From positions 7,936,001 to 8,000,000 of the forward strand of contig OZ287749.1 of the NCBI GenBank assembly GCA_965649765.1: DNA of 64,000 bases. The letters run 5' to 3'. Shown piece after piece: positions 489-22,008 of the stretch. A model generated the notes under the pieces. That model ran no database searches. It was not told the origin of the DNA and saw only the letters and a list, made by a program, of their open reading frames with translations. Position 1 is the stretch's first letter, and each line of letters begins with the position of its first letter. The translations under genes and the position numbers were made by a program. Source of the DNA: Bispira polyomma (lineage: Eukaryota).

Positions 489-761
489 ATAATTTTTTAA
501 AAATTTTTTTGAACACGAAGCACAAGAAACAAATACGAAGAAACAAACTTTTATTTACACAGAGAAGTAGCACTATCAACTACAAATTGAAAAGAGCATA
601 TCACAAAAAATATAAAAGAATAAAACTTAAGAACTAAAAACAATCTTTGCTAAAATACATCACAAAATAAAGAAGATCTACAAAAAAAAAACAACAAAAA
701 AAGAGATTTATAATTACATATAATATACTTTAATTTTAAGATTAGTGTCATTAATATAATC

Positions 762-1660
762 TTAGATGTCTATAACAGGTACAACAGCAAGACCGAGTAT
801 GGTGTCATCACTGGGTAGACATTCACCACATACCAATTTTTCTAGCAGATCTAAATGACATTTACTCTGCAAACAGGAAATCTGATTTGTTGCTGTTGGC
901 AAGGCATCACAAATACGACTGTAGGCTATACCCAGAGCACAGAGATTTCTATACTTTAAGGTCAAGCCTCTTTTGGTTGGTCGAAACACATCTGTATCTT
1001 CTCTCTGGTACCAAAATCTCACACTCACCACCTGATACAGACTGCACACAGTCACAAAGATCTTATTGCCCAAATGTTGTCGGTAGTTAACCTCACAATT
1101 ATTGTACATATGATGCAGCTGCTGTTTGATTATTTCTAAATTATGAATCAAAACATTGAAAGCTCTCATACTTAGATTGATAAAATTTTCAATCAAACCA
1201 TTGGAGTCTTTTGTATAAATCTGAATCCACACATTAGACTTTAATTGATGCACACATAGGAATCTTGACTGATCTAAACAAAATTCTTCATTGAAGACAG
1301 CCTGCAGTTTGCTGTTAACAAATTTGTTATCTAAAGTGGCATCTGCACTCGCATCAACACCATTACAACTGACAGCCTTTTCTGTAGGACAACTGTTAGT
1401 CTTCTCTGCAGGATGACTCTCACTGACCACAGTCTCAAAAACTGAACTAGCATGTGAAGTGATAGGTTTTTTAACCGGGAACATCTGAGAAATTTTTCTA
1501 CTTTTCTTTTTACTAACACCAGAATCATCTGAAGCTGTAGTTGCTCCACCAGGTTTACCTAATTTAACTTTAACTTTAGGTAACCTAGGTCGTTTACCCT
1601 TTTTTTGTCAGAATTAACAACAACCATTTGCTCGGTGTTATTATTACAAGCAGACATCAT
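762..1660 (-). pseudogene. Polinton accessory gene with tandem PC4/p15-like ssDNA-binding domains
   Basis: ORF 762-1484 contains HLGNKIFVTV...VSVRFWY...RPTKRGLTL (PC4 signature), preceded by a second degenerate PC4-like repeat. One extra base in the T7 run at 1600-1606 would extend the frame to an ATG at 1660 through a K/R-rich stretch. Confidence 0.7.
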
Positions 1661-3361
1661 GAAGACTGATACATGTAATCACCAACTAACAGCAATATAT
1701 GTACCATTTGATCAATCTAAAAAAGGAATCATTACCTAATTTTTATGTATTTGTAACCCCTAAAAATAAATCTGTGGTAATTATTTATTTATAAATATGA
1801 CTTATAAACCTGTAATGTATACAACAATTAAAGAATCTTGAATATTTGTTAATGAGTCATCTAATCAACCAATAATCATATTACAAAACATCTACAGTAA
1901 AAAATAAGATCCATAATAATAATATTAATAACAAAACATCTGATAGATCCCCGACGCCTGGACAAGTGAAAGGAATGCTAAACTTCAAAGAGAACTGAAT
2001 ACCAGAATATAATGTAAGGAGCAAATAACCAACATCAAAGCAATCCAACCTTTAGAATTATTGGATATTAACTCATTGCATATATTCTCTTAACAAAGCA
2101 GTCTGTCCTTGAACATGCTGGATAAAAGTTCAGTTAATAATTAGTCATTCACCAAACAATCCAAGCACCGACATGTATTCAGACAGTACACTCACTCATA
2201 GAAAATATCATCCATTATTCTAATCTACACTTAAACTGAAAACAAACCAATTAACAACAATCTACAATAGGAAGAAGCTAAATAATAAAATGTTATCACT
2301 ACCCAATCTAACTACTAACTTTAAACCAAGAAACAAAACCACACACAACCTATAAAATCAAGAAATCACCTTTTACTTATTTTAAAACACCAGAATACCT
2401 AAACAGAGGAATATAGACAGAAACACAGGAGAAACTTGTTAGACAGAAATGACGTGCAGAACCAGACAATTTTTAACTAAGAAAAAGTAACCCTAATCTT
2501 GCAAACACCAAACAAAAAAAAACCCATATAAACTATCATTTTTATTTAAGTCTAACCTAAAACCGAAATTTCATAACTTACATCAACCTAGAAACATGTT
2601 TGAACACTATTATTCTTTGTTAACTAAAAAAATCTCACCTCTAATTAAGTTAACCTAAAACACAAAACTAAAATAGAGAAATACATCTTAACTGTACTAT
2701 TGAATTAAGTTTAACCTCAACCTAAAATCTAATACCTTATAAAAACATTGTCGTTCTGAAGAAAGTGGGGAATGTTTTGATAAGCACAAAGAAGTGGAGC
2801 ACACTATATAATTTTCAAGTCCAAACCAACCCACACACCTGATATCAAGAATCTTCATGAAATACCACAAAGGTATTTATTAAAATTCACGCATCTGTAA
2901 TATCTATCAGTGAAAATATTTAATCAACACACATATACAGGTGTAATAATTAATAAAGAAAATACAAACCATAAGAAAACTCTCTTTCTCTATAACTGAT
3001 AATTACAGTTATCCACCAAATTTTTTAATTTGCAGACGTTTAACACTAATAAAAAAAACAACTACTAATCTGCAAGTTATTACGGTAACTGTCTAATCAA
3101 TCTAGATCTAGAGTCTCGAATTATATACTGACTCAATCTGTCAACATAATTATATTGATATTGAGCTTTTTTCTTAACCAAAGTAATCAAGTTTTTAATA
3201 TGATATATGATAAAATGTCTGTCAAGTCACATCAAAGATACGTTAAAAGTCCGTTTGAGAACACAATACAGGGCTTATACATGTTATAACAGCACACCAC
3301 ACTATATAAACCACCGAGTTTGATAGTTAAAGAACCACTGATCTACAGATAATAAGCAATC

Positions 3362-3724
3362 ATGGATGTGTATGCAATCGAGCCTAAGAAATCAACTTAT
3401 GTTTATTGTGGTTTAACTGATCCACATATATGTCAGTCGGTAGTGAGAGCAGACCCAATTGCTCACTGTGAAACTTGTTATGGACTGAAACCTATTGCTG
3501 CCAAATACAACAACAAGAATTCCATATTCACATGTTTATGGTGTGAGAATGATTTCAAGTTCACCACACAAGCGGTCACACTACACATGCTCCTCTGTCG
3601 GAACACCCCTATTGCCAATTTAGGGGAATACAATGAATTAGCATGTGTATGTCAACCGAGAATTTTACTATCAAAGCTTTCTACAGAGGATCCCTTATGG
3701 ATTATCCCCACACCTGGAGAATAG
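3362..3724 (+). CDS. Polinton accessory Cys/His-rich small protein, putative zinc-binding
   Basis: 120-aa ORF with CETC, CLWC and HxxxC motifs. TATATAAA at ~3303 upstream and AATAAA at ~3987 downstream. Confidence 0.5.
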   Translation: MDVYAIEPKKSTYVYCGLTDPHICQSVVRADPIAHCETCYGLKPIAAKYNNKNSIFTCLWCENDFKFTTQAVTLHMLLCRNTPIANLGEYNELACVCQPRILLSKLSTEDPLWIIPTPGE

Positions 3725-4351
3725 TAGCTGAGGGTATGTACCCTGATGACAAGACCAAGGCAGAAGTGGTAGTTACTAAGTTGCTGTTAAAAAAAGAGAA
3801 CAGATCGAGGCAGTCAGAGACAACCCTGTGACCATTCCCACCAAGAGATGTTCAACCGAGACAGACTCGCCCAACCGGAAAAGAGGTAAAGTACACAAAG
3901 GTGTACAAGTTAAAGAACCGGTCGGCTACTTGTCAATGTATGCATAAACTGATTTATATCTATAAGTTTAAATTGTATATATATTATATAAACACTTTTA
4001 GTCTGCTAGAATTTTGTTTTATTTAAAATAATGAATTAATTAGCTACTTATCTAATCTCGCCTATAAGTGAACATATTTAAAAAAAATTTCATATCAAAT
4101 ATACATGTATTATATATGTTAAGGTGAACACAGTTGTATAATATGAATGGTAAATATAAGAATCCAGGGTGTAGCATTTCTATACGTGAATGGGCAAGTT
4201 TTTAAATATTAACCATCTGAAACCAGACTGTACACGAACTGTATTTAAATGAATTGTTATACAAAACTTTCACCCCCTGAAGTGTATAAATACCCAGGTT
4301 TTTTTAATTTGCGGTATCATTTGCTCTTTTTTTATCAAACATAAAATAACC

Positions 4352-4622
4352 ATGAATTGCACATTCTGTTCTTCGTTTAGTGAGGTGTATCTTGTTCTTT
4401 CATGTGGCCATGAAATATGCATTTCATGCTATCTAGAGTCAGATCTGTGTTTGAATTTGGATATTTAACGTCCACTCTAGTACCTTTTAGTAGGTTATAT
4501 TGGGATGGGTAGTTGGAAACACTGAGGAAACACTGCATACAGTTGGTCAGTCAGATCTGTGTATATGGTGTGGGATAACATCTACACATTCTATCATGTA
4601 CTACCAGGTAAGACAAGAGTAA
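4352..4622 (+). pseudogene. Polinton C3HC4 RING finger gene interrupted by a SINE fragment
   Basis: Removing 4451-4562 restores MNCTFCSSFSEVYLVLSCGHEICISCYLESDLCIWCGITSTHSIMYYQVRQE*. TATAAATA at ~4285. Confidence 0.8.
4451..4548 (-). mobile_element. 5'-truncated SINE (3' 98 bp) with 14-bp TSD
   Basis: Reverse complement matches the 3' end of the SINE at 40708-40966. Flanked by AGTCAGATCTGTGT at 4437-4450 and 4549-4562. Confidence 0.93.
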
Positions 4623-5059
4623 TATGCAAAGAAAATGTTTTTAATAATTTAAGCTCTTTATAAGTGCACAAGTTAAATGTTAAAAATAATCAAGAAACAG
4701 CCAACAGTGCTTTGATTGGTAGTTTAACAGTGAAAGAAAAACAATTGGTTTTTAATCAAATCTATGGTTTATTAATGTTTTTATATCAGATAAATGGTTT
4801 TAATTATTATCATTCTGTATATCAACTTCTTTTATGGTAAATTTTAATTACTTTACCAACTGTACTGTATTAATTACATGTAAAAGGTAAACTATAATTT
4901 GAAAAGAACAGTAACCTTAATCTCTGCAGCTCAAGCACTATATATTTAAATAGAATGCTGTAATCACCAACTATATAATATGTATACAAAAATGTTTTTT
5001 AAGTTACATGTAATATTAATTACGAATCGTATTGACCAATGCAGTGTAATAGTTATATT

Positions 5060-5238
5060 CAGTAGAACCTCCATTATCCAAGCATATTGTGAGACTGTGA
5101 ATTTGTTTGGATAATAGAAGGACTGTAAAATAGAAGCATTTTAGTATAAAACAATAGTAATAAATAAGTTTGGGAGAATGAAAATGACTGTAAAATCAAA
5201 GTTGGATAGTAGAGAGTTGGATAATAGAGGTTCTACTG
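5060..5238. mobile_element. Tc1/mariner-type MITE inside the Polinton
   Basis: TIRs CAGTAGAACCTC(C/T)ATTATCC ... GGATAATAGAGGTTCTACTG followed by TA. Same family occurs at 24524-25142. Confidence 0.75.
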
Positions 5239-5970
5239 TATGTTGTATATATTATAAGCTCAATGAAATTGTAGTGTTACACAACTTATGTGTATATTCG
5301 TGTAATTAGAACACAATAACTATATAGATATGTACACACTCTGTTCGGTTAATTTACATATTTTAAATTACATATAGACACCCATGACTTGGGGAATTTA
5401 AAATGTCTGTGTAGAATCTCGAATGAACTGTAGTATCACTAACCGCTACATAAACTGTATATATATATATATATATGAAATTAAAACTGGCTAAATATAA
5501 GTAAATTACTGTAATCTCTACAAACAATGGTAAAAAATAAAACGTCTGTAAAATCCTTTGCTTATTGGTTATAACTATCTATACACAACTAGTGATAAAA
5601 TATAATTTTTACACAAATGGAAGACATAAGTATAAACAGAAAGGTTAAAGAATTACAGAAAAGAAACCAATTATCAGACAGGTTATTAATAGAAACAACC
5701 TCTCCAAAAGTCAGCTGCTACCAGTAAAATGTTAAATGATTACAAGAAGTCATAGAAAAGAAACACATTATCAGTCAGGTTAATTATAGAAAGATCCTCT
5801 CCAAAAGTCAGCATCAAAAAAAAAAAGAATCACTTACTACTGGTAGTTTTATATCTAGTATTCATCCCACTCTTATTTTTATCTGCAACATTTTTACTCT
5901 TTTTACTTTTATCAGTTTCTCCAGTCGGCTTTTTCTTTGATTCACTCATCTTTGTTTTAACCTCTGTATT

Positions 5971-6425
5971 TTAAGAATCAGTAATCTGTGAATCAGTTAA
6001 AATCTCAACAGAATCACCACTAGCATCATCATCGACTATATTAATTAATGGAAGAACCTCATAATTTACAGATTCTAAATCAACACGTGGTCTAGCTCTG
6101 ACACCTCTACGACATTTACAAACACAACACCTCAATAATATAAAAATTATTGTTGGTGTTGCTGTACTAATCAAACCTACTGGAATAGTAACCTCAAGCA
6201 ACAATGCATTTTTGTTAGCCTTTATGTTATATTAAACTCTAGCATTAGATGTGTCATCTTTAACCACAATCTGTTCTGTATCCAAATGATCTTTATCAAG
6301 CACAGGAATATTAACAATCTGGTCGATATCCAAATGTTCTTTGTCAAGCACAGGAATATTATCAATCTGGTCGTTTTCCGAATGTTCTTTTTCCAGCTTG
6401 GGAATGTCAATCTTCTCAGCAACAT
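5971..6425 (-). pseudogene. Exon encoding an acidic repeat stalk, transmembrane helix and cytoplasmic tail of a type I membrane protein
   Basis: ORFs 6232-6444 and 5971-6204 share one frame, split by a single TAA. Acceptor ttttctttttAG at 6426-6427. Three ~16-aa repeats (IxNIPVLDKEHLDxDQ), a hydrophobic helix, RCCVCKCRR and VNYEVL. Confidence 0.6.
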
Positions 6426-6849
6426 CTAAAAAGAAAAGTAACAATGAATATTAGCTTTTAATAGAGCTGGTATCTAACAAAACCTTATTATAATTTTTTA
6501 GCAAGTGGACTAGCACAATTGGAGTATGGAAGCGCAGGTTGACACAGAAGATGAAACAGAAGATGAAGAAGAAGTAGAATACTGTCTAAACACTTCATCA
6601 GAGAGTCAATACTCAAGCATCACCGACGAAGAACTTTATTGATATGTGAAAAATCAGTCAGATAATTCAAACTATTGTTAATTTGAATATGCTCGTAAAA
6701 AAAGAGAGTAGAATTCAATTGTTGAAAATAATATATTGTCAATAAATATAATTTATATATAAAATGCTAGTTCTTATTGTTTTAAATCTTATCACTATGT
6801 TAATCAGTGTCATATTGCAAGTGGCTGGGAGATTTATGATCTCAGCATA

Positions 6850-7500
6850 CCAATTGGTATGTCTAACCTAGAATGACATACCAACACCACTGAACCAACC
6901 TTAGCAAGTCTTCTGTCAAATAGAAGCAAACAGAAGTTACAATCAGATTTGTAAGTGATTTGCAATCTCTACGTATCAATTGGTATGTGTAACCTGAAAT
7001 GACATATCTCATACCAATTGTTATGTCTAAACTAGAATGGTATACCAACACAAATTGACCAATCTTAGCAAGTCTTCTACCAATAGAAGCTACTGTGATT
7101 GGTATCTGTAACCTGAAACGTCATATTTCATACCAATTGTTGTAACTAAACTAGAATGGTATACCGTCACAGATTGACCAACCTTAGCAAGTCTTCTACC
7201 AATAGAAGCTACTGAGAGATTTGTAATCACTGAACCAACCTTAGCAAGTCTTCTACCAATAGAAGCTACTGTGATTGGTATGTGTAACCTGAAATGTCAT
7301 ATCACATACCAATTGTTATGACTAAACTAGAATGGTATACCGACACAAATTGACCAACGTTAGCAAGTCTTCTACCAATAGAAGCTATTGAGAGATTTGT
7401 AATCACTGAACCAACCTTAGCAAGTCTTCTACCAACGGAAGTAGCTGAGAGATTTGTGATTTCTGTACCAAACTTAACTAGTTTTTTACCAATGGAAGTC
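6850..7500. repeat. Compound tandem repeat (57-bp and ~118-bp units) in the Polinton left arm
   Basis: Recurrent TTAGCAAGTCTTCT(ACCAATAGAAGCTA) about six times and CATACCAATTGTT...AAACTAGAATGGTATACC three times. Confidence 0.85.
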
Positions 7501-7879
7501 AATAGCACTAGTTCCAATTAAGAGGTAATCGTGCTGTCACGACCTCAAGAGATTTGTGATCTCTGTATACCACCAAATATCAGTCCTTTCTCATCACTAT
7601 ATATCAGTAACTATAGGGTTGGTATTTCGATATCTATATATCATACACCGAGTTCAACTAGCACTGGAAACAACAACACTAGTTCTACTTAAGCAAATTA
7701 TTGAATAAACAGGGTAACTAGGAGAAACTGATTTTATATTCTTCCAACCAGAACACCATTTCTGAGTACCACAAGGTTAAATAACTAAAAACATCATTTT
7801 AATAAACCAACATGAATGAAACAGTGTTAAATCAACAGCAAGAAACCATATAAACTATATGTTATCACTTCTCTATGAT

Positions 7880-8206
7880 TTAACTATGCTTTATACCAGA
7901 TTGAATTAAATCACACTCCTTCACGTCTACACTGTTAAGTGGAATATACCTGCAAGGAACTCTGGTTTGTATAATTAATCTCTGCAAGAGTGTTGCACTT
8001 TGAGCTAGTTCAAAAACGTTTACAAAACTGACCTCGCTGTCGTATATTAATAGATACTGTACACTGGCACTTTTAAAATCCTTGATATCTGCATTAGTCA
8101 TCCCTGTACAGTACAACTTAGAGTTATGTAAAACACGACAGTTGTAGTTTGCTTGTCCAGGAGTTACAAAAACAAACAATATGAATATAATCACTAACAC
8201 AGACAT
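7880..8206 (-). CDS. Polinton secreted or ectodomain protein with signal peptide and degenerate LRR-like fold; probably a first exon
   Basis: MSVLVIIFILFVFVTPGQA signal peptide, 4 Cys, and LRR-like strands (VQYLLIYDS, LQRLII). Candidate phase-1 donor G|GTATAA at 7897/7896. Confidence 0.55.
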   Translation of the reverse strand: MSVLVIIFILFVFVTPGQANYNCRVLHNSKLYCTGMTNADIKDFKSASVQYLLIYDSEVSFVNVFELAQSATLLQRLIIQTRVPCRYIPLNSVDVKECDLIQSGIKHS

Positions 8207-8377
8207 ATCTATAATCCGTCGAAAGTATATGGTATCCGATAATCCTCTCGATTAATAACCACAGAAGATGCTCAACTGTCGTGATGACTTTACTAGCTAA
8301 ATGTTGTAAATGTAAATAAAGTACAGTGTATTTTAACTGGCAATACAGGTATACAACACACACTTTAGACATTTTAC

Positions 8378-8700
8378 AGGTAAACATCCGGAAATACTAA
8401 GTACTGAAAACAGGAGAAAGCACACGTTTTAGTTATGGTTCACTTCATAGATGATCACGCACCCGTCAATTTGATGTATTGTGGGTAAAAACGGAACATT
8501 GTTTACCTCAGAGATTACCCACAATTCATCAAATTGACGGCTGCGTGACCATCTACGAAGTCAACCATTTATACAGGTAAACAACCGGAAATACTAAGTA
8601 CTGAAAACGGGAGGTTTCTAAATCACACGTTTTAGATATTTATACGAGTAAACATCCGGAAATACTAAGTACTGAAAACAGGAGGTTTCTAAAACACAAA
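8378..8700. repeat. ~71-bp tandem repeat (3 copies) interrupted by a 134-bp palindrome
   Basis: GTAAACA(T/A)CCGGAAATACTAAGTACTGAAAAC three times. Inverted repeat with 54-bp arms at 8435-8488 and 8515-8568. Confidence 0.9.
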
Positions 8701-8902
8701 TTTCTCTACAAAACCAAAACTTAATTACAAATATATTATAGTAAATAATAAAACATACCTAATCAATTTTCATCTTAAGTACTCTCAAACGATCCAAAAG
8801 TTGTGTCTAAATCAGTATCCTTGATTGTGTTGTTATTTATAAATTCTACACTTTGATAAGTACAATCAATCAAAGGTGTACTAGCTCTACTCTCTTCACA
8901 AG

Positions 8903-9229
8903 TTAAATGTTGACAATGTGGTTTTTCATAAAATCTAATATAGAAAAAAAAAATGTAACACTTAATTTGTTAGAAAAAAAAGTAGATATATTACAATTAA
9001 CAGAACCTAATATAGAAGGAAAATTAATAAATACAAGTGATATGTTCAGGTTAGTCACTGACTCAAAGTACAATCTTTCAACCAAGAAATCTACTCCTGT
9101 AAATCTAGGATTTGTCACACCAATACAGCTCACAAAAAAGGTGGTACAGTCACATCTTTTGTCGCATAATTCTCCTGAAATATAACTAAGACAGCAAACA
9201 ATCAAGAAATTCACAAATAACTTTCCCAT
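8903..9229 (-). CDS. Polinton secreted protein with signal peptide and LRR N-terminal cap-like motif; 3' end uncertain, probably spliced
   Basis: MGKLFVNFLIVCCLSYISG followed by CDKRCDCTTFFVSC (C-x3-C-x-C-x6-C) and an LRR-like strand VERLYFES. The ORF tail runs through an intron-like T-rich tract. Confidence 0.55.
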   Translation of the reverse strand: MGKLFVNFLIVCCLSYISGELCDKRCDCTTFFVSCIGVTNPRFTGVDFLVERLYFESVTNLNISLVFINFPSILGSVNCNISTFFSNKLSVTFFFSILDFMKNHIVNI

Positions 9230-10049
9230 AATTTAACAGTTTATAATTACAATAAAACAACAACCTCAAAGTACTGAATGAAACAAAAGAACAACTAACT
9301 CTCAGTCGTGTATTTCAACTAGATGCTGCTCTACTATTCTATATATGAAACATTCAGCTGCAGACTGTTTAACCGTTAACACCTACACAAACCGTTAAGT
9401 ACAATAAATGTCACATAAAGAAGATTAATTATATTTACATTGGATCCCTACAACCGTCTCGCATATTTGGCGCACTAACAAACAAGTTTGATTATATTTA
9501 CATTGGATCCCTAACTAGATGGGTGCAATCTCTAACATATGTAGATTTATATCAAGCGATATATTACCATGTCATAAATAAAAACACTGTTAGCTTTAGA
9601 GTACATTCAAGTGCTGTATATATTTCTTTTATAATTATCAGAGTCCCTATATATATTTATGTAAATAGTATATATACCATCAATACACATGCGTTCATAA
9701 CTCGTAACAAAAAAAATTATTATTTGAACATATGTTACTTCATCCTTATGTGTACTTTATTTTATCTTAAAGAAATCTACGTTTAACTATTGAAATGTGT
9801 GTTGAACGGTATTGTAACCTGGCTGGTATTATCAACGTTTGTGAATTAAATATATGGCAACACAATGGACACATGTAATATTTGTAGAGCGTGTTATGTA
9901 ACTATAATATATATAAATACATATATCTGCAGTTTGTAGAATGGCCTTGTTAGTATTAATTGTATTATACTATTTTGTACTAAAGGTTGTAGAATGGTGT
10001 TCTTAGTAGTATATGTCTTGATACAGGTATTTTGTCAAAATTTAGATAT

Positions 10050-10632
10050 AGTGTAGTATGTTTCAGTGACATACGTTAACAATCTTTAAGGATTTTACTT
10101 CCTTGTTCGATACTTGGTAAAAGAAACTGTGCAGTATATAACTCGATATACTGTAGTGCATTTTAGTCGCATACGATAACAATCTTTAAGAATTTTACTT
10201 CCTTGTTCGATACTCGTTAAAAGTATGCGGTATACATCTGTTTATATAAGAATGTACTGTATGACTTGTTACGGTTATTTTACCACGTACAAGTGTCTAG
10301 TAGAACATTGGTTTTGTCCTACCCACGGCCTCGACCAGTTCGATGTTTACATTTACATTGATTTTACCGGGTGACTGAGACCAAGGATAGGACAAAGTCA
10401 GCCACCGTGTACACATACACAATACAGAGTTAGGTTCTGTAATCGTCGCACTCTCTAAAGACGTCAAGTCAAATTCTATACAGTATCAGTCATGTTATTA
10501 TTTGTATTTCTTCTTTAGTCTACAAGTCAAATTCTATACAGTATGAGCCATGGTATTATTTGTCATGGTATTAAGACGACAAGTCAAATTCTTTACAGTA
10601 TGAGTCATGATAGTATTTGTATTTCTTCTTTG
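10050..10632. repeat. Short direct repeats upstream of pPolB
   Basis: Two copies of a ~90-bp unit (AACAATCTTTAAG..TTTTACTTCCTTGTTCGATACT) at 10050-10223, and three copies of AAGTCAAATTCT(A/T)TACAGTAT..GTCATG at 10466-10632. Confidence 0.75.
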
Positions 10633-10838
10633 GAATACTGTAAATATAATAGTGTATATAATACCCTACACAAATAATGTATATTATTGTTGACATCATT
10701 TAATAACTCATCGAGCTATATATAAGGCATTACACTATATTTTGACGTAGATTATACAAATAATGCAGAGTATATAAGAGAGGAAAATTAGCACTATTAT
10801 GACATAGTAAATAACTAGCTCTACCAAGTGGTTAAATC

Positions 10839-13800
10839 ATGCTTTGTCCCTACTGTAGCATGTTTTTGAAATGGGAAAGAAGTCTGTTGAAACATTTGAA
10901 TGCTTGTAAGAAACTGCAAGTATTGAATTGTTAACGGTGTAAAACCAACTTTGTAGATATAAAATCGCTGTATAGACATATCAGAAAATGTTACAGTTCA
11001 TGCTCTAACAATATTAGCAGTTGTAAACATTGTCAAAAAAACTTTAAAAGACATGACGATAAAACAGATCATGAAAGATTATGTGTTGTGTGCTATAGAT
11101 GTCATATTGTATTTAAAGATTGTGAGACTAAAAGAGCTCATCTGAAAACTTGTACAAAGCTTAAACCAAGCTCTGAACAGTCTGGTGCTACACCCTCAAA
11201 AATAGGTAAATTTTGTTGCAAACAATGTTCAATCGTATTTACAAACATATCACACTTGCTAAGTCACAATTATGACAAACAAGCACCTTCCTGTAGCACT
11301 GTAACTAGCACTAATACACTGCATGATAAAATTAGTAGTACTAAGGGTGAAGAAGATGACACACTAGTGAAAAATGGAGCAAATAAAATTAATAGTACTA
11401 AGAGTGAAGTCGACACACTGGTAAGAAATAGTGCAACATCACACTGTAGTGAAAACAACAGTTTCATATCCGAACAACTGGAAAACTCTAAGAGAGAGAG
11501 TAAATGTGTTAAATGTGATTCAGTATTTACATCAAAATGGGAATTATATTTACATAATATATCAAATTATTCACAAACTGGGGGACAAAGAGGTTTACAG
11601 AGAAGGGTAGTACCTCAGGATTATCAATTTGAGTCGGATGCAATGGCTGATACATATGAAGAAAATATTAACCATATACTGGTACGTGACATAAGAGGTA
11701 GAATAAGGTCAACTTATAACTTTCCTACTTTTGACCTAGAAGGAGGAATGGGAAAAATATTGGAACATCTAGACACAATTTACCAAACACAAACAACTTC
11801 CTTTAAATTGAATGTTTCATTTGGTCTCATTTTAAGAAACATAGATGACGATTCATATAGATATTTTGTACCATTTTATAATAAACAATTATTTTCTGTT
11901 CCTGTTACTATATCTAAGAGAGCACATCTGAGACATTTATATCATAGAATTAGAGGGATGGATATTCCTGAATTTATTCGAAATTTAAAACCAAGTAGCA
12001 AATGGGTACCAGCTATGATAACCAATTTACACTATAACGCGATACAGACCTCGTATCCTCTAGGCAACACTGTTGATGTGCTACCAGATAATATTATAAA
12101 TTCAAAATCAATAATAAGTCTAGAAAAAAACCAAAACAATGAACTGCATAATGACAGGTTATGTGCATTTAGAGCTATGGCTTTACATTATAATAACTCA
12201 GAGAAGAACCACCTAGACTATTACTATCAATGGGTTGAATTTACCAAATCAAAGGTGCACTACAAAGACTTCACTGGATTGGAGTTAGAAGATTTACCTA
12301 TGTTTGAAAATTGTTTCAAACTAAATGTAAACATTTTTAATCTACAAGCGCAGGGAACAGTCATGACAGTGTACAATTCTATGATGACTTATGATGACAC
12401 CTTACATCTGAATCTATACAAAAATCATCTCAGCTATATTAGAGATATCTCTTGCTACAGTTGAAAAGATCAATGCAGGCAATGCGAAAATTTTTTAAAA
12501 TTGTATCAGAACTCAAAAGGCATTCGTCACATTGTTATAATCGTACAAGATATGTACTACCAGGTGGATTTTACCAACCACCTAGAAATATATTTCAGAA
12601 ACTAGAAAACTATAACATAATCATCCCTACAGAAAAAAGATATTTTCCATATTTTGCTGTATATGATTTTAAAGCAATGTTAAAGCAATCAACAGATTCA
12701 GAAAGCACAAGACTTCAGTTTACGACTGAACATGTTCCTATTAGTGTCTCAATTTGTTGTAACGTAGAGGGTTTTCAAGAACCAGGGTGTTTTATTGAGG
12801 ATAATTTAGAAAATCTGTTATGTTCCATGGTTGAGTATTTAGAAAAAATCGCCATAAAATGTTGTTAAATTGCTAGAATAAGATGGAGCGATGTGTATGG
12901 TGCGATTGAAGCTCTTCGTGAAAGCTTTGGTGATGATAAAAATGAACAATTCATTCAGTTGGAGAAAGATTTTGATAAACATATTGGTTAATTACCCATT
13001 TTAGGTTTTAACAGTGGAAAATATGATCTAAATTTGATTAAAGGTTAATTAGTATCACATCTGTTTCAAACTGAGGACAAGAGTGGATACACCATCAAGA
13101 GAAACAATAACTATCTCTCATTAAATTCAACCTCCTTTAAATTTTTAGACATCAGCAATTTTATTGCTCCTGGAGTTAGTTATTCTAATTTTTTGAAATG
13201 TTACGAGGTTGAGGAATGTAAGGGATATTTTCCATACGAGTGGTTTGACAGTCTTGATAAGTTAGATTATCCTGAACTACCACCATTTGCATTGTTTTAT
13301 TCAAATCTAAAGAAATTTACAACATGTTGCAGCGAGTATGGAATAAAGAAGAAATTACCTCATTCAGAGATTTTCTTATATGGTATAACAACCTAGATGT
13401 GAAATCTTTTTGTACTGCAATAAAGAACATGCAAAAATTTTACTTTGAAAAAGAAATTGACATCTTTAAAAATTTTATTTCAGTATCAAGTATTGCAAGA
13501 AAGATGTTATTTGATTCTACCAACTGTAGATTTTCATTATTCAATGAGTCTAACAGAGACATTTATCACATTATGAAAAATGGAATAGTAGGTGGTCCAT
13601 CTATAGTATTCAGGAGATACCATGAGGTTGATACAACTTATATCAGAGAAGATTCAAGCAAAGTGTAGAATTTAGAGATGCCAATGCGCTTTATTTATGG
13701 CCTATAGGACAAAATCAACCCACCGGGTTATATGTGAGAAGAAGAAAGGAGGCAAATTTTAAAGGTGAGGTACCAGTCAGATAATTTGAACAATACATTT

Positions 13801-15717
13801 GGCTCGATTACGTCTCTGAAAAAGAAAATTTACGGATTCAGCATGGACTGAACAGTGGTAAAGAGTATTGTATTGGACCCTATAGAGTGGACGGGTATGA
13901 CTCAGAACATAATAAAGTGTACAAGTACAATGGGTGTTGGGTACACCACCACGACTGTCGTCTAACTGAACATATAAAATCAAAAAAATGGCATCAGGCA
14001 ACTGAAAGTTGTTTAAGACGAGAAAAGCAACAAATTTATTTAGTCACTCTGTTATGAAATAATTGTAATGAGAGAATGTCATTACCAAAAATACATTAAA
14101 CAACACACTGAACATATCAATTTGCGTTATCTTCCTAGATATTACACCAAACATAAAGGTGAGTTGTCAACCGAGCAGCTGATCAAAGCTGTTAAAGAGG
14201 AAATTTTTTTTGAAGCTATGCAAGTTGATTTAGAGGTACAAGACAGATGGAAGACAACACCGTCCTTTACTAAACTGTCTCCACAAGAGTACTTTGGTGA
14301 AATGAGTCCTATATTTGCTAAAACAGAGATACCTTTTGATGTCATTGGTGCGCATATGCAAGAATTTGTAGAAAAATTTCAATGGTCTAAAAAAACTGAG
14401 AGAACTTTTAGTAGGCGGAATGAAAGCAGAAAAGATTTTATTAGCTACACCACTATTGAAGTGGTATCTAGATCATGGAATGGAAATAACACAGATATAT
14501 CAGGTTATTGAATATGTACGAAAACGTTGTTTCGAAGATTTTTCTCTTGAGATTTGTGAAAGGAGAAGAGAAGGAGATAAAGTAGCTCGTAAAGCGATGC
14601 TGGCTGAGTTGTCGAAACTCATCAGGAATTCGAGCTTTGGATCGACTTACAGAATTAAATAACGATATGTATGAGATAGAGAGATTTAAAAACAAAATCA
14701 CTTTAGATGTACCAATACAAATAGGTTACTTTATATTACAGTACGCAAAGTTAAAATTGCTGTCTTTTTATTGTTTAGACAAATATGTAGACAGATCCAA
14801 TTTTGAAACGTTAGAGACTGATACTGACAGTGCCTATTATGCATTGAGTCAGTCTAGACTTGAAAACAGTGTTAAACCTTCACTAGTCTCTGAATTTCAA
14901 AAGATGTATATCATTCATGTAGTGATAAATTTATCCCGCCCTGGTTTCCTAGATTGTGCTGTCAAAAACACGCTGCATTTGATTGACGTACTTTATCATT
15001 ATTCAAGGTGGAATGTAGAGCTACTAAAGCTATATGTCTGTCATCAAAAACCTACATCATGCGACAAGAGGATGGTAAAAATAAGATCTCTTGTAAAGGT
15101 GTTTCAAAGAGAGCATTAAAAAATCCCATAGATATATTTGAAAAAGTTCTGAAAACTAAATGTAGTCTATCAGCTAGCAATATCGGTTCCAGAGCTAGAA
15201 TTAATACCATATTCACATATTTACAAGGTAGGAGAGGGTTTACATATCACTATATCAAAGAGAGGTACTAGAAGATGGAATAAGAACTCGCCCACTAGAT
15301 CTAGTGCTCCGTCCTTGTCAAAGTGATATTGTAATTGTTGATAAAAAACAAGACCCACTGTCTAATGAATACCCAAGTGTCATACAGTGCAATCAAGCGG
15401 TATACAAAAACATACATGACTATATTCAAAAAAAGAGTGAAAAAATAGACGAAGATGTTGTTTTGAACCAGAGATGGATTGAAGAATGAGATTCTACAAT
15501 AGAGAAGATTTTAAAACTAAAATTAACACATTACCCAGAATTTGCAGACTCATTGAGGAAAACTCGAATATCCTACATCTGTTATAATGTTTCAAAAGAT
15601 CTATATTGGAATGTTGGTTTGGCTAGTAGATTGCTAGATCTTATAAATAGCGAGTCATACCCAGGAAACAATCAAATGGGATTATTGCTGATGAAAATTA
15701 GAAACAAGCTAAAGTAG
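10839..15717 (+). pseudogene. Protein-primed family B DNA polymerase (pPolB) polyprotein: Zn fingers - terminal protein/vOTU-like - exonuclease - polymerase with VSR-like insertion - NADAR
   Basis: ATG at 10839 is in frame with ORF 11088. ExoI YDFKAM, ExoII FNSGKYD, ExoIII YNNLDV, GGPSIVF, motif A DANALY (13678), motif B KLIRNSSFG, motif C TDTDS, C-terminal VLEDGIRTRPLDL. Many stops and frameshifts. Confidence 0.95.
15340..15717 (+). pseudogene. NADAR/YbiA-like domain in frame with the pPolB C-terminus
   Basis: DPLSNEYP...W IEE*DSTIEKILKLKLTHYPEFADSLRKT...KDLYWNVG...YPGNNQMGLLLMKIRNKL*. One internal TGA at 15487. Confidence 0.8.
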
Positions 15718-15718
15718 A

Positions 15719-16351
15719 ATGGCTTTGAAATTTTGTGATCCAGCTAGCATTCTTATCAGTAGTTGCAGCTACTCAGGAAAAACTACTTTTCTCTATAAAT
15801 TTTTAGAACACAAAAATGAGATGTTTATAAAAGCACCTGGAAAAACATTATACTGTTATTCGGTTTGGCAACCTATCTACGAAAAACTACAAGAAAAAGG
15901 AGAAATAGTCTTTAACAAAGGTTTACCTGATCTAAAACAGATAGAAAGCTTAAACAACGGAGCACACAATTTATGTGTATTAGATGATCTGCAAGAAGAG
16001 GTTGCTGACAGTAAATTTATCGAGAGGTTATATACAGTATACTGTCATCACTATCACCTGAGTGTGATTACTATTCTGCAAAATTTATATTACCGTGGAA
16101 AGTCTCTCCGCACGATTAATCTTAACAGTCATTATTTGTTGCTGTTTAAAAATCCTCGTGATATTAATCAGATAAAATATCTAGGACAACAGGTTGGGTT
16201 GGAAAAAACACTAGAGGAAGCTTATTGCGATGCAACCAATGAAAATTACAATTATCTGTTGATTGATCTGTCACCTCACTCTACCACACCTTATAAATTG
16301 AGAAGTCATATATTACCGGGGGAGGATACTGTAGTGCATACAAAGAAGTAG
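15719..16351 (+). CDS. A32/FtsK-like DNA packaging ATPase
   Basis: Degenerate Walker A SCSYSGKT, Walker B LCVLDD, HHYHLSVITILQN and RTINLNSHY. Confidence 0.93.
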   Translation: MALKFCDPASILISSCSYSGKTTFLYKFLEHKNEMFIKAPGKTLYCYSVWQPIYEKLQEKGEIVFNKGLPDLKQIESLNNGAHNLCVLDDLQEEVADSKFIERLYTVYCHHYHLSVITILQNLYYRGKSLRTINLNSHYLLLFKNPRDINQIKYLGQQVGLEKTLEEAYCDATNENYNYLLIDLSPHSTTPYKLRSHILPGEDTVVHTKK

Positions 16352-16402
16352 ATAGACTTATTAAAATAAAAGTTTCTACAAAAGATAAAAAAAAATATAA
16401 AT

Positions 16403-16672
16403 ATGAGCGCATTATTAAAAAAGCATTCAAATTTTATAAAACTGTTGATTTAATCTCACACAGAACAAGCACTTGTATTGATAGATACCTTAAATGAAAA
16501 ACAAGCACAAGTATTGATAGAGACACTTATAAATATATTAAAAGTATCACATTTAAAAAAATATAAAACTGATGTAAAGAAGTTTGTAAGATTGATGAAG
16601 AGACTTACCACTAGAAAACTGAAATGGACAGAAATCTATAAAAAAATTGTTAACCTGTTAGTTATTCGGTGA
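16403..16672 (+). pseudogene. Small conserved Polinton protein downstream of the ATPase
   Basis: MSALLKKHSNFIKLLI*SHTEQALVLIDTLNEKQAQVLIETLINIL. Position and helical pattern typical of Polintons. Confidence 0.5.
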
Positions 16673-16693
16673 TGATTTGTTAAAATTGTTAAC

Positions 16694-17017
16694 ATGAATA
16701 AGTTTGTGTTGTTACCGTATGATCGTTACAAAGAACATACAAACAATCCCACAAACAGCAAATCTATTGCCACCGACGAGGCTGTTCATGTTGAAAAAAG
16801 TGAAGCAAGCAAAGAGCAAAATTCTATAAATAAGGTGGACGATGGTTTAATTAGCACTGGAGACACTGAAGAGGGTAATACTACAACAAGCTTGTTCGAA
16901 TCTAATCAGGTTGGAGGAAACCAAAAAAGAGCAAAAAAGAGTTGTCTATTCCTCCACCAGGAATCCCAGAAAAAAAGTTTTAAACCTCTCTCAAAAAAAA
17001 CAAAAAAAACCTACTAA
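16694..17017 (+). CDS. Small Polinton protein, putative virion core
   Basis: MNKFVLLPYDRY start, QVGG motif and basic tail. A frameshifted IPPPGIP suggests a damaged 3' end. Confidence 0.5.
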   Translation: MNKFVLLPYDRYKEHTNNPTNSKSIATDEAVHVEKSEASKEQNSINKVDDGLISTGDTEEGNTTTSLFESNQVGGNQKRAKKSCLFLHQESQKKSFKPLSKKTKKTY

Positions 17018-17068
17018 AGCCTATGATATTTGGAAAGAAGGTTGACAAAGATATTGATATTAATTAGG

Positions 17069-18078
17069 ATGGAACAAGAAAAAACAAATTACCTACACAA
17101 TGTTTATTGCAACAGTAAAAATCCAACATCCTTTGGTGGATTCAATAAATTTTATAAATTTGTAAAAGGTGAAAATAGATATCCTTTTTCCAAACGTGAG
17201 GTTAGAGAATGGATGGGTAAACAGGATGCGTTTATTTTGCATCGACCGGTACAAAAAAATTGAAAAGACTGGTTACTATTGCTGTAAAGAAAGATCAACA
17301 ATGGAATTATGATACAGCTAACATGATAAAATATAATAAGAGAAACGGTCATTTTTGTGTTCTTATAGGTACTTTAACTCGTTTTTTGTGGTCATTTCCA
17401 TTACGTAATTTGACTGGTGAAGAAATGAAAAAGGAACTTAAAAAGATTTTTGTTAAAGAAAAACCTACTTTTTTATTTACAGACAGAGGTAGCAAAAACA
17501 AAAATAAAACTATTCAAAGTTATCTAAAAACTGAAGGTATAGTACACTTTATGAGCAATAATGAGACCAAGGTAGCGATGGCTGAGAGAGTGATCAAAAC
17601 TGTTAAATTAAAACTGATTAGAATGATGACGGGTAAAAATAATTTCAATTGGGTTGAGGATTTAAAGGATATTACTGAGTCGTATAATAAAAGTTTCCAT
17701 AGAACATTGCAAAGTACTCCTACAGAGGTGACAAAGAAGATTACGATTTGTGGAGAGAGCAGTATCTCCCAAAAGAATATATAAAAGATGAGATTAAATA
17801 CGATAAAAAAAAGTGACCTAAATCTAAATCAGTTTATAAATTCAAGGTGGGAGATCTAGTAAAAGTTGCTCATCTATCTAAGTCTTTCCAAAGAGAATAC
17901 GACGAGAGGTATTCAAATGAAAATTTTGTTGTTGCGCAGAGAAAGGGGAACCAGAGTAAGGCACAGTACAAATTGAAGGATTTGAACAATGAGCTTATAG
18001 GTGGTTTCTTTTATAACCCAGAACTGCAAAGAGTTTACTCCGACAACAATACCACACATCGAATTGAAAAGATACTCA
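17069..18078 (+). pseudogene. Retroviral-like (rve) integrase, frameshifted, chromodomain truncated
   Basis: NPTSFGG, LHRP, QWNYD, TDRG, AERVIKT, FKVGDLV, GFFYNPELQ and RIEKIL across three frames. Confidence 0.92.
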
Positions 18079-18260
18079 TATCGTTGATGGTAGTATTGTT
18101 GAAGATCATTATAGACCTTTACTCAGAATAGTTGGAAATGTAGGAGAGTTTCACAATGTTTACTATTAAAATATTACCAGACAAACTATCTCACGGATCA
18201 AAGTGTATATAAAGGGTAAAAATTTGAGTCGTCAATTTCTACGAGAGTTGTTTTAATCCC
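18071..18260 (+). pseudogene. C-terminal remnant of the minor capsid (penton) protein
   Basis: Frame not in the ORF track: HIVDGSIVEDHYRPLLRIVGNVGEFHNVYY*NITRQTISRIKVYIKG. The PLLR and IxVYI pattern is typical of Polinton pentons. Confidence 0.65.
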
Positions 18261-18285
18261 AGAAGAGTTTAAAAAGAAAATAAAA

Positions 18286-18583
18286 ATGGTAAATTGGGTT
18301 GAGGTGTGTTAGGACATGCGTGGAGGCAAATTGACCAGAGATAAAAACCTATATATATATTAGGTGAACAGAGAGGTGGTGAAGATAATATAAAGGGACT
18401 CGTTACTGTTGTTTCACCTACAGAACAGCAAGTAGACATGGCACGTTCTGAATTAAAAAAAAATTTAAAAAAGACCTGTTGGTGAAAAAATGATAAAGAG
18501 TAAAAAAAGAGAAAGTTATTAAAAGACTTAAAAATAAAAGCGTTAAAACGCAAAAAAAAACACAAAAGAAAAAGTAGGTGTAA
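18286..18583 (+). pseudogene. Basic core (DNA-condensing) protein
   Basis: MVNW...MRGGKL...EQRGG...VTVVSPTEQQVDMARSELKK followed by a K/R-rich tail. Contains stops and frameshifts. Confidence 0.6.
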
Positions 18584-18687
18584 TTGATTATAAATAGGCT
18601 GCCACATATTCTATTCACCTGTTGTTAAGGTGATAAGGATAAAGAACATATGTTCCAGAAGCCGCTGATAGATCCTTCTGTTCCTTC

Positions 18688-19904
18688 GATTGGGTAGAAT
18701 ACAGACCTACTGGACAGGTTAAAGATGGTAATGTTATCTAGATAAATATACCGGGAGATGGTGCAGATTACATAGTTTAAAAAATTCTAGATTATGTGTA
18801 AGATTTAAAATAGTTAAACTAGATGGAACTAATATTCCTACTACTGCGAAGGTGGGACCAGTTAATTTAGCACTGCATTCCTTGTTTAGACAAGTAGATG
18901 TTTCATTACAGATTAATATTTCTCCCAGCGTACGAATCAACTATCCGTACAAAAGTATTTTAGATGTGTGGTTGCATAATACATTTAAGGGTGAGGTTTA
19001 ACAATTGCAGAATGAATTGTTACCGCTGATAAACACGACGACACTTGTGATGCTAAAATAGGATTTGGAATTAGAAAGGATAGGTGTGCAGTTAACAACG
19101 AGGTTGATTTGATCTCTCCACTGCATGTAGATCTGGCTCAACAGGAAAGATTAATTCTAAATGGTGTACAGATCAATTTCAAGTTTTACCCGAGTTCTAA
19201 TGTTTTTCAACTAATGAGCGGAGACGATGCTATTGATTATAAAGTTGAGATAACCAGCGCTTCTATGGAAATATGTCAGGTTAAGTTAAATCCTTAACTC
19301 GCTCTGGCACATGCTACAGCACTAAAATCTTCTCCAGCTTTGTATCCCTACTGGCAAAGCGAGTTCAAGACGTTCACTATAGCTGCTGGTAGTTTTAATT
19401 GGACAGATGATGGTATGTTCCATGGAAATGTACCTAGTAAACTTATAGTCGGTTTCGTCCCTGGAGAGGCTTATAGTGGTAGTTATAAAAAAAAACCCGT
19501 TTAAATTTCATCATTATTATTTAAATTTTCTCAAATTCAGTGTAGACGGTGTACTCATACCCTCTTGTCCATTTCGTCCTGTTTATAAAGACGGACATAT
19601 ATCAGCTCAACCAACTTATATAACTGGACAATATGCTGAAAGTTTCAATAGTTTCTTTTATGAAAAATACCGAAAAGAAGAAGGTGCGTTGATAGAGTAC
19701 ACAGATTATCCAAATGGTTATTGTCTGTATGTCTTTAATATCGACAGCAATGTATCCGGTTCATTAAAGTCAACTATAAAAAAGGGTCATACAAGAATAA
19801 CAGCAAACTTTACCAAAGGTTTGGCAGAGAGTGTTACTGTTTTACTATATGCACGTTTCCCTGCGATGTTAAGCATCGATGAATCCAGAGCTATAGAAAT
19901 ATGA
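18688..19904 (+). pseudogene. Double jelly-roll major capsid protein (PY); extreme N-terminus not recognisable
   Basis: WVEYRP, GPVNLALHSLFRQVDV, YPYKS, LHVDLAQQERLILNGV, GNVPSKLIVGFV, KNPFKFHHY, GYCLYVFNI. Confidence 0.93.
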
Positions 19905-20289
19905 ATACCCATCAACTTCGTCGAGCGATGTTAAAAGATGAAAAAATTAAAAAGTATTTTTGAGGGGTTTATGCGTCTAATGAATTACCTATGATATTAT
20001 GTGGGTAAACAGTGTAAGAGAATATTTTGATTCTTTATGTTATTTACCTAAAAAAAATTTTGAAAATTTCTTATTCATTCATGGAAATAAATATATAAGA
20101 AATAGTGTGGATTTGCAAAGTTCTGTCAGCTTATTATGCGGACAATACTGTATATATTATGCCTACCATCAGAGTAGAGGTGGAACTTATCAAAATATTT
20201 TAAAAGATTTTGACAATAGTTTGCTGGGTAATGATTTGATGGTTAAAAATTTTTATGATAGCAATTTTGGTGAGATAAATATTATATAA
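19901..20289 (+). pseudogene. Adenain-like cysteine protease with internal deletion
   Basis: MNTHQL...F*GVYASNELP, EYFDS and LQSSVSLLCGQYC. The catalytic His (GxHW) segment is missing. ATG overlaps the capsid gene TGA (ATGA). Confidence 0.88.
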
Positions 20290-20331
20290 GGAGGTCTTTC
20301 GTGGAGTTGTAGAACAGTTGAACTTTCCAAC

Positions 20332-20986
20332 ATGGCAGAGGTAGAGGTTTCCGACAGCATGGTTGATAACATTGATCAATTTAGTGATCTTGAAGATACG
20401 ACTGATTGTCTGGTGGCTGCTTCAGCTAGCAGTTTTAGAAAAAGAAAACCTGTGGTTAGTTGTACAGATGAATTGAGAAAAAAATTTGCAGATCTAATGG
20501 ATGCAGATAATTCATTGGATATGTGTCGTGACTGGTTAGACTATGAACTTTGTGAAAACAGAAAAAAAAGTTTTGTAGGTTGGCCTAAAAACCTTTCAGT
20601 TCTACCAAGAGATTTAGCAAGAGCTGGATTCAGATATACTAGAAAGGGTGATAGGTGTGTGTGTCACAAATGTTGTTTAGTATTGCACAGCTGGAGTTAG
20701 TTTGACGAGCCACTGCAATTACACGCTAAGTCAAATCCTGAATGCGAATACATACAGATGCTACTTCCTGTTGCAGAAAAGTATCTGTACTGTACCAAAA
20801 TCGGTTAGACAGTTTCAGCAGAGGGTGGAAGAGGAGTCATATAGTACGACCTGAACAGCTGGCTAGAGCTGAATTTATGTACACGGTCTTGAGGATCCTT
20901 GTCACTGTGTGTGGTGCTCTGTAACAATGCACTCCTGGGACTATTCAAAAAATTGTAGTTTTCTTAAAATGGTTCATGGTAATTAG
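20332..20986 (+). pseudogene. Inhibitor-of-apoptosis (IAP)-like gene with two BIR domains
   Basis: BIR1: RKKSFVGWP..LARAGFRY..DRCVCHKC..W..H....PEC. BIR2: RLDSFSRGW..LARAEFMY..CHCVWC..W..C. Contains a stop, frameshifts and a deletion. Confidence 0.9.
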
Positions 20987-21125
20987 TGTTATGTAAATAT
21001 GTATATGTTGTGTGTTATATAAAAAAAAACGTGTGTAGTTTGATTTAAATAAAATTTAATATATATATATATATATATATCTTGTTTCATTTTTCCCCAC
21101 TGATATTATATTTTATGTATGTTTG

Positions 21126-21365
21126 ATGATGGCTTTAGGTTTAATTATATACAATCCTGATTTTGATCAACAATGTGTGGTTAACTGAACATTGCTGAAT
21201 GATACCGATGATCTATGGTTGCTTTGTAATAGTGAATTAAATTATCATTGTGTATTCATCTTGGACTACAATGCTTTCTTTATAAGAGATTTTCAAAGAG
21301 ATCTAGCTTACGAAGAGAGCAGTTATGAGTTTACATTAAAAAAGATGAAAAATTTTTTTGTTTGA
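21126..21365 (+). pseudogene. Small unknown Polinton ORF with one internal stop
   Basis: 80-codon frame MMALGLIIYNPDFDQQCVVN*TLLND...KNFFV* between the two IAP genes. Confidence 0.35.
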
Positions 21366-21477
21366 TTGCTAATTATCGAGAATGTAACTGGTTTGCATCA
21401 GAGGTATATAAATAGAGGTGTATGATTTATAAACATTACATTCTTCCTCATACAGTGATAAAATCACATACTGCACA

Positions 21478-21828
21478 ATGGCAGTTCAAGATGGTTTGTC
21501 GGGATTATAAGCCACGAGTTTAAAAGAAAATTTTACAGAAAAAGAGAATGGTAAAAGTTTTGGTTTTGTCTTAAGCATAGATTACACCCTGTATGATGAC
21601 AGACTAAACAGCTTTAGACTTTGGCTTAGTAGCTATCCGGTGTGTGCTGAGAGATTATCTGCTGCTGGTTTTCGATATTTAGGACCTGGTGATAAGGTTG
21701 AGTGTGTTTGGTGTAAACTAATTCTCCAACAATGGACATCAACCTGTTGTCCGATGCATCAATACTTACTTCATTCTAAAGGAAATTGTAAATTTTTAAA
21801 AATGCTGTATCCCAGTTTTAAAATGTAA
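21478..21828 (+). pseudogene. Single-BIR IAP-like gene
   Basis: ATG 21478 with one early TAA. RLNSFRLW..LSAAGFRYLGPGDKVECVWC..W..NCKFL. TATATAAA at ~21405. Confidence 0.9.
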
Positions 21829-21888
21829 CTTCACGAGCATGTAACTAGAAGATATTACATTTTAAAAACAATTAAAAAAACAATTTAA

Positions 21889-22002
21889 AAAAATTGATTT
21901 TGTCGGCCATTTTGAATCCGCCATTTTGTTTTTAGCCGCAATATGGATGAGATAATTTCGGATGAGATACAAACCGATTGTGGACTAACACCTATTACTA
22001 CT
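21889..22002 (-). repeat. Polinton right terminal inverted repeat
   Basis: Matches 375-488, ends ...CCTATTACTACT, and is followed by TSD CATGAT. Confidence 0.97.
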
Positions 22003-22008
22003 CATGAT

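Follow-up and report, generated by a model that had tools for sequence, protein, structure and literature searches.

The closest described relatives of the domain reported here are the YbiA-subfamily NADAR hydrolases, for which the structures 8BAU and 2B3W are available. According to the accessible text of PMC11543638, E43, K50 and E125 are the mechanistic residues of guanine de-ADP-ribosylation by NADARs, the phosphates are contacted in 8BAU by K50, R79, W89, R93, D130 and W133 and the adenine by Y84 and G78, and substitutions at equivalent NADAR sites abolish activity or toxin rescue. NADARs of the T4 type are active with a His at the E125 site (PMC11125620, accessible text). Members of the family have also been found in mobile elements and viruses, namely in ORF1 of Tx1 LINEs of the Pacific oyster and in a Gypsy Pol of Ectocarpus (PMC12477816, accessible sections) as well as in phages, NCLDVs and RNA-virus polyproteins (PMC9503650, accessible text), and the accessible part of PMC11825919 describes phage NADARs including T4 AdfN/gp30.3 as counter-defence. 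For Polintons, a polymerase named pPolB2 with an inserted VSR nuclease has been described from molluscs and marine nematodes (bioRxiv 2023.08.22.554363 / PMC10748475, in the sections available).

Here we describe a NADAR domain at the C-terminus of a Polinton DNA polymerase in the window, which is the whole analysed stretch of 64,000 nucleotides (G000:C2:7936001-8000000) of a genome searched over 1.04 Gb. The domain resembles the YbiA-subfamily hydrolases in fold and sequence profile, and its sister copies have kept W89, R93 and W133, but it differs from them in being fused to a DNA polymerase, in having an aromatic residue at the E125 site, in rarely showing E43 and K50 together and, in the window's group, in missing 19–26 residues from its middle. 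Like the NADARs of Tx1 and Gypsy it is fused to the replication protein of a mobile element, although these two are retroelements; the Tx1 form is abundant in the same genome, where its NADARs have complete sites and stand outside the polymerase-fused clade. With the NADARs of RNA-virus polyproteins and of phages and NCLDVs it has in common that a viral NADAR is linked to a replication enzyme or to counter-defence, whereas T4 AdfN/gp30.3 is a stand-alone protein and proven active. The DarT1-NADAR antitoxin system differs as well, since an adjacent ADP-ribosyltransferase gene is absent and the neighbours are the polymerase, an ATPase, two small ORFs and an integrase. The likeness to pPolB2-VSR lies in the phi29-like polymerase, and one of the homologues is labelled at its source as a very-short-patch endonuclease; we presume a VSR-like insert in the polymerase from a motif match by eye, and Pfam gave no VSR match.

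The features of the locus in window coordinates are the following.

375..22002, plus strand: decayed Polinton/Maverick of about 21.6 kb, recognised by terminal inverted repeats and a target-site duplication
10947..15717, plus strand: broken gene for a zinc-finger / protein-primed DNA polymerase B / NADAR protein, located by tblastn with the unbroken 1,619-aa sister protein
15259..15303, plus strand: usual C-terminal motif of the pPolB thumb (REVLEDG...PLDL), which reads REVLEDGIRTRPLDL in frame 1
15304..15324, plus strand: short conserved linker (of the L-x-L-x-P-W type in homologues), from the homologue alignment
15325..15717, plus strand: shortened NADAR (YbiA-type) domain without the catalytic residues, from Pfam, the sister model and the residue table
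15719..16351, plus strand: open frame of a presumed packaging-type ATPase, starting 1 base past the NADAR stop, 70% to the sister ATPase
17069..18128, plus strand: integrase remains (Pfam rve, E 7e-6, below cut-off)
18635..19901, plus strand: remains of a probable major capsid protein in five frame segments, located by tblastn with a 433-aa sister ORF of L032

The element is bounded by inverted repeat arms at 377-498 and 21879-22000, which are 95% complementary, and flanked by the 6-bp target-site duplication CATGAT at 369-374 and 22003-22008, as is characteristic of Polintons/Mavericks. Also the gene set is that of this group, with protein-primed PolB, integrase, ATPase and capsid, the last two assigned by motif or position, and the genes are arranged in the order polymerase, ATPase, two small ORFs, integrase, probable capsid, probable protease and BIR frames. 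The frame at 15719..16351 gave only weak AAA matches in Pfam, and we take it to be the ATPase on account of a Walker A-like motif and the Polinton gene order. The 433-aa sister frame has no Pfam match, and its size and position led us to name it a probable capsid protein. Presumably the frame at 19984-20289 (plus strand), which shows a C-G-Q-Y-C motif resembling the Polinton cysteine protease and has no Pfam support, encodes the protease. BIR (inhibitor of apoptosis) domains are encoded by two ORF remnants of the plus strand, at 20290-20700 and 21511-21828 (Pfam E 3e-9 and 1e-12), and a 281-aa frame near the left end (762-1607, minus strand) has a weak PC4 match below cut-off (E 0.003). Outside the Polinton the window contains a single-exon Toll-like receptor gene with LRR and TIR (53059-55890, minus strand), its broken duplicate about 5.2 kb away (58378-61028, minus strand; repeat families D4 and D6-D8), an LRR-only frame at 34704-36143 and the remains of an LTR retrotransposon, whose 292-nt direct repeats (26543-26834 and 31166-31457, 96% identity) enclose ORFs with RT-RNase H and integrase zinc-finger matches (27251-28849, minus strand).

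By tblastn, the polymerase gene is broken into nine frame segments from 10947 to 15711 and contains several stops, and the window's own polymerase-NADAR copy is a dead pseudogene, with 92% DNA identity to the sister copy L034 across 7.1 kb. The upstream residues ...YHYIK are read in frame 2, which places a frameshift at about 15255-15268, where the preliminary description had assumed a one-base break near 15257. From the end motif onwards frame 1 runs open via the linker into DPLSNEYP..., is interrupted by one TGA at 15487-15489 and ends with the TAG at 15715-15717. Reading of the frames thus agrees with the earlier statement that the polymerase end continues without a stop into the NADAR, which itself stops at 15717, ahead of the ATPase ATG at 15719. 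In the linker of the fused homologues, P is found in 81, L in 71 and W in 60 of 86 proteins. The stretch translated with X at the TGA matches Pfam PF08719 with 40.2 bits (E 5.4e-10, cut-off 35.1), the match covering profile positions 82-163 only, which is the C-terminal half, and four sister copies score between 39.8 and 45.8 bits with the NADAR superfamily profile. A feature search of the ESM Atlas with the same stretch led to NADAR clusters (0.92, 29 of 30 matches), and a PDB search with the single window protein gave no significant match, but a sister profile did match.

In order to see the fold we used a 270-residue AlphaFold model of one sister's end (pLDDT 86.8), the NADAR part of which has the helical core and two small sheets of YbiA. 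It superimposes on the Phytophthora nicotianae NADAR 8BAU with a VIA Z of 14.0 (rmsd 3.2, 140 residues aligned; Foldseek E 1e-4) and on YbiA 2B3W with 11.8, followed by a Geobacter NADAR with 5.5 and the next unrelated structure with 4.0. Pfam, sister profile and predicted fold agree on the NADAR/YbiA identity that had been proposed from the letters of the sequence. The first part of the model corresponds to the thumb of phi29 polymerase (residues 488-575, Z 3.6), and a larger model of 1,151 residues (pLDDT 91.2, pTM 0.90) matches phi29 polymerase with E 6e-12; the high pTM of this model may indicate that the NADAR tail has a defined place on the polymerase.

A search of the genome gave 150 scored matches, and the best 30 loci, which include the duplicates L017/L018 and L021/L022, were examined. 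They fall into three subfamilies (A, B and C) with 43-52% identity across the NADAR domain. Of the 30 junctions between polymerase and NADAR, 22 are open in a single frame, three keep the frame but contain a stop, and five are frameshifted, at differing places. In L031 a single ORF of 1,619 aa reads from zinc fingers through the polymerase into the NADAR (Pfam NADAR at 1523-1612), and the ORFs of L033 (1,256 aa), L032 and L034 (511 aa) also span polymerase motifs into the NADAR, which provides the continuous frame expected for a true fusion. Neither a stop behind PLDL combined with a separate NADAR gene in an intact sister nor any separate NADAR gene was found in these 30 loci. We also chose 20 loci of more distant Polinton families from 151 palm-segment matches, long open frames being favoured, and a NADAR follows the end motif in 19 of them, in a single frame in 15. 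The in-frame fusion is not chance, because in the sister copies NADAR and polymerase motifs are read from a single open frame. That the polymerase and a separate NADAR gene were run together when a stop was lost by chance, as the frameshift at the junction of the window copy might suggest, has next to no probability: it is refuted by the sister copies, the other families of the genome and the fused database proteins described below, and the linker is conserved. A programmed frameshift shared by L005, L006 and L008 at the linker was considered and rejected, as the changes differ among the three. About 100 NADAR matches on contig C5 had been candidates for free genes; these turned out to be a tandem amplification within one Polinton (G000:C5:44912791-45031206, L035 and L036), in which each of the roughly 100 units of about 1.14 kb covers the larger share of the NADAR region together with the ATPase and the beginning of the ORF that follows.

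To cover the databases, a profile of the polymerase end plus NADAR was run in a full HMMER scan against 1.84 billion representatives (50% identity), resulting in 2,505 matches of which the best 150 were examined. The polymerase end motif is reached by 146 of them. A tail of at least 100 residues is present in 87, of which 86 are recognised as NADAR (67 by the own-genome profile and 19 more after one iteration); as the profile favours fused proteins, 86 of 150 is not a prevalence. The remaining 59 of the 146 have shorter tails, ten of them with a partial NADAR match, and 39 end within 1-23 residues past the motif, some possibly being truncated records. Pfam finds the NADAR in 14 of 14 fused database proteins (nine above cut-off) and in neither of two unfused controls, and some homologue records carry automatic labels such as ribA/ribD-fused or YbiA, so the domain is visible to databases. 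A word-index homologue search with the long protein returned 359 candidates with one match, which is unfused; no relative was found in the IMG/VR viral contigs, and among 50 listed BFVD matches, several of them unnamed, none is named as polymerase-NADAR fusion and each matches either the thumb or the NADAR. Taken together, the polymerase-NADAR fusion is real, old and widespread.

It is apparently also unreported in Polintons, as had been supposed before, while NADARs in Tx1, Gypsy and RNA viruses are already published. The literature searched for Polinton or Maverick together with NADAR or YbiA gave no report; NADAR and YbiA do not occur in PMC11161782, PMC8502044 (with supplement), PMC11131425 and PMC12721341, the text and supplement of PMC10748475 contain neither of these nor ADP-ribos-, and the text of PMC9503650 contains neither Polinton nor Maverick. 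This covers the sources named; papers behind a subscription, notes in Repbase, supplements made up of pictures and the 2012 paper naming NADAR lie outside them and could mention such a fusion.

To take a closer look at the active site, residue columns were anchored on 8BAU numbering. At the E125 site competent NADARs have Glu in the YbiA type, Asp in the DarT1-linked type and His in the T4 type, and here a Tyr replaces the Glu in the window, in four aligned sister rows and in all three subfamilies, and the complete set of catalytic residues looked for in the sister copies is not there. The E43 and K50 sites are His and Ser in subfamily A, Glu and Glu in B, and Asn or Ile and Lys in C, E43 and K50 never being joined. 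The window's subfamily has neither E43 nor K50, and its adenine-binding lid is shorter by about 26 residues; the E43-to-W89 spacing is 20 residues in it and 24-27 in its sisters against 46 in 8BAU, so the K75/G78/R79/Y84 segment that holds the adenine is not preserved in this range (20-27). The pyrophosphate contacts W89, R93, D130 and W133 are present as W, R, D and W in the unbroken sister L002; W89, R93 and W133 are kept in all three subfamilies, and D130 is Asn in B and C. The preliminary description had cautioned that a short middle and a lost Glu might indicate either decay or a non-catalytic domain, and of these the second is the better reading: both features are found in the unbroken L002 and are thus properties of the lineage and not of a decaying copy.

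The same picture is seen in the wider set. The other Polinton families of the genome (15 loci) have Phe in eight, Tyr in five and Trp in two at the E125 site, K50 in none, E43 in 13 and Leu at the R93 site in nine, and among the own-genome Polinton copies examined E125 never occurs and E43 is never combined with K50. Of the 86 homologues only P0003 and P0014 show Glu at the E125 site, which is Tyr in 31, Phe in ten and a gap in 13. E43 is present in 26, K50 in 29 and E43 together with K or R at position 50 in ten; W89 is found in 63, W133 in 51, D130 in 46, Arg or Lys at the R93 site in 29 and 12, and the three fixed residues of the final G-x-N-x-x-G in 78, 75 and 70. A near full-length middle is kept in 64 of the 86, and fewer than 30 residues separate E43 from W89 in 17. 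P0014 and P0003 keep E43, K50, W89, R/K93, E125, D130 and W133 and look catalytically complete. P0088 and P0149 were considered as further carriers of E125 in an offset check and rejected, both being shortened domains that lack the motif. Across the domain P0153 shares 68% identity with P0014 and carries Tyr where the latter has Glu, suggesting a recent switch at the E125 site in one direction or the other. As a control, 22 loci of Tx1 ORF1 NADARs in this genome were tried, and each of the 19 that could be parsed has every one of these sites intact. This Tx1/L1-type LINE family, whose ORF1 ends in the complete-site NADAR, shows 150 matches listed of 2,147 candidates, examples being L057:3241-4581 and 5486-9304 (G000:C7:2973000-2982999), L059, L060 and L037-L056.

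From these residues, the NADAR of the window's lineage and nearly all others is predicted to be catalytically dead, which has to be read as a prediction because T4-type NADARs work with a His at the E125 site. The active eraser that had been proposed earlier finds no support in the window's lineage, where the E125 site is Tyr, E43 being confined to B and K50 to C. The removal of ADP-ribosyl-guanine by a polymerase-tethered enzyme against a host that ADP-ribosylates DNA, with changed chemistry in the Tyr-type domains, would be quite improbable. In its favour are the complete sites of P0014 and P0003 and the complete NADARs of the Tx1 elements of this genome, and there are precedents in phage NADARs that counter DarT1 (PMC11825919, accessible part) and in CARP-1 homologues, reported in the accessible text of PMC12945103 mainly from bivalves and also from other invertebrates. 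It is opposed by the own-genome copies described above, by the loss of activity or toxin rescue upon substitution at equivalent sites (PMC11543638, accessible text) and by P0153, which is so close to P0014 and already has the Tyr. A search of the genome for a Scabin/pierisin-type transferase (PF22596) gave 0 matches, but the control also matched nowhere. For the ancestor and for the two complete-site homologues a role as eraser is plausible.

Regarding the evolutionary origin, the fused NADARs form one side of a branch against four Tx1 and five phage NADARs with support of 100/99 (36 chosen rows, mixture model) and with an SH-aLRT of 99 in a larger tree of 77 fused rows from which 14 shortened rows were excluded, these trees having only nine outgroups and long branches. 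The complete-site P0003 and P0014 sit on short branches within the fused group. Tx1 elements as direct donor of the NADAR are not supported, as their NADARs stand outside the fused clade. In the polymerase tree fused and unfused proteins are intermixed, with 13 changes among 97 scored rows; a tree of 35 long polymerases needs six changes and does not reject monophyly of the fused set (AU p 0.059). Such mixed trees fit one gain followed by losses and are no proof of it, and a single capture of the NADAR by a Polinton polymerase appears likely. Pairwise dN/dS of the NADAR between the subfamilies, from natural copies, is 0.33-0.44, indicating purifying selection, and that of the polymerase end is 0.12-0.23 where synonymous sites are unsaturated; all these values are rough and raised by decay after insertion.

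The fold, linker and core are kept, the catalytic residues are lost in varied combinations and an aromatic residue is favoured at the E125 site, which is the pattern of a pseudo-enzyme. Our preferred reading, to which we give somewhat less than an even chance, is that the fused NADAR is a hydrolase captured once and now a non-catalytic accessory that helps the polymerase to hold DNA. A working ADP-ribose-cutting enzyme would have been captured onto the C-terminus of the polymerase, and its activity would then have been lost in the window's lineage and nearly all others. By analogy with phi29 the tail may be located behind the thumb, where the product duplex leaves the polymerase, and the remaining phosphate-binding face (the W89, R93 and W133 sites) may be reused to contact the DNA backbone or a nucleotide, so that the NADAR would assist in holding DNA without being an enzyme. 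We favour this since DNA-binding additions to the C-terminus of phi29 polymerase are located at the product-duplex exit and improve DNA binding (PMC8313265, accessible text). The same analogy makes the earlier idea of an eraser clearing blocks ahead of the fork a poor fit. The DNA-holding reading is weakened as the domain is not basic (median net charge near neutral at +1, positive in 47 of 87) and R93 is variable, and an accessory role of any kind is weakened as the NADAR is dispensable, judged by the unfused ends and the mixing of fused and unfused proteins on the tree, and as its sequence changes far more quickly than that of the polymerase (62 homologues share a mean identity of 21% in the NADAR and 45% in the polymerase end). 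The conservation of W89, W133 and the G-N-G motif might have no other reason than folding.

The kept pyrophosphate-contacting residues (W89, R93, W133 and D/N130 in the three sister subfamilies), the strong preference for an aromatic residue at the E125 site and the near full-length middle of most homologues would also suit a non-cutting NADAR that binds ADP-ribosylated DNA or protein, e.g. PARP marks at DNA ends, and thereby shields or positions the polymerase. We regard this as unlikely, because the short spacing in the window's subfamily removes the K75/G78/R79/Y84 segment for holding adenine and phosphate (PMC11543638, accessible text) and K50 is absent in most. Similarly unlikely in our view is a domain without any ligand, kept for packing against the thumb or for signals of the next gene within its DNA and shed wherever an early stop is tolerated. 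Its repeated absence in relatives and its progressive shortening, with 17 of 86 below 30 residues, would be in line with such a relic, as would the ATPase start, which abuts or overlaps the NADAR stop in the sister copies. Between subfamilies B (L009, L012, L016) and C (L015, L017, L019, L021, L026, L027, L029) pS is also lower in the NADAR part (0.54) than in the polymerase part (0.83), for which recombination, codon composition or cis signals acting on the ATPase gene could be responsible. Against a relic stand the open frame and fold, which are kept across lineages at such a low mean identity, and the other own-genome families, which keep the NADAR and in which the ATPase frame was not seen directly behind it. 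More speculatively, and in our opinion doubtful, Polintons might have captured a DNA de-ADP-ribosylase against ADP-ribosylation by the host, with P0014 and P0003 still cutting and most others now sensing ADP-ribose or holding DNA.

In summary, an apparently unreported domain is present in many lineages on the best-studied protein of Polintons. P0014 and P0153 with their Glu and Tyr offer a natural pair for the transition from hydrolase to pseudo-enzyme. If the accessory does hold DNA, it would be a natural counterpart of the engineered C-terminal fusions of phi29 polymerase. As NADARs occur in two unrelated classes of mobile elements of one animal genome, ADP-ribosylation of parasite DNA or RNA in invertebrates becomes testable with published assays, and if the capture was a counter-defence, it would suggest, along with the complete Tx1 domains, that invertebrates have a so far undescribed defence in which nucleic acids of mobile elements are ADP-ribosylated.
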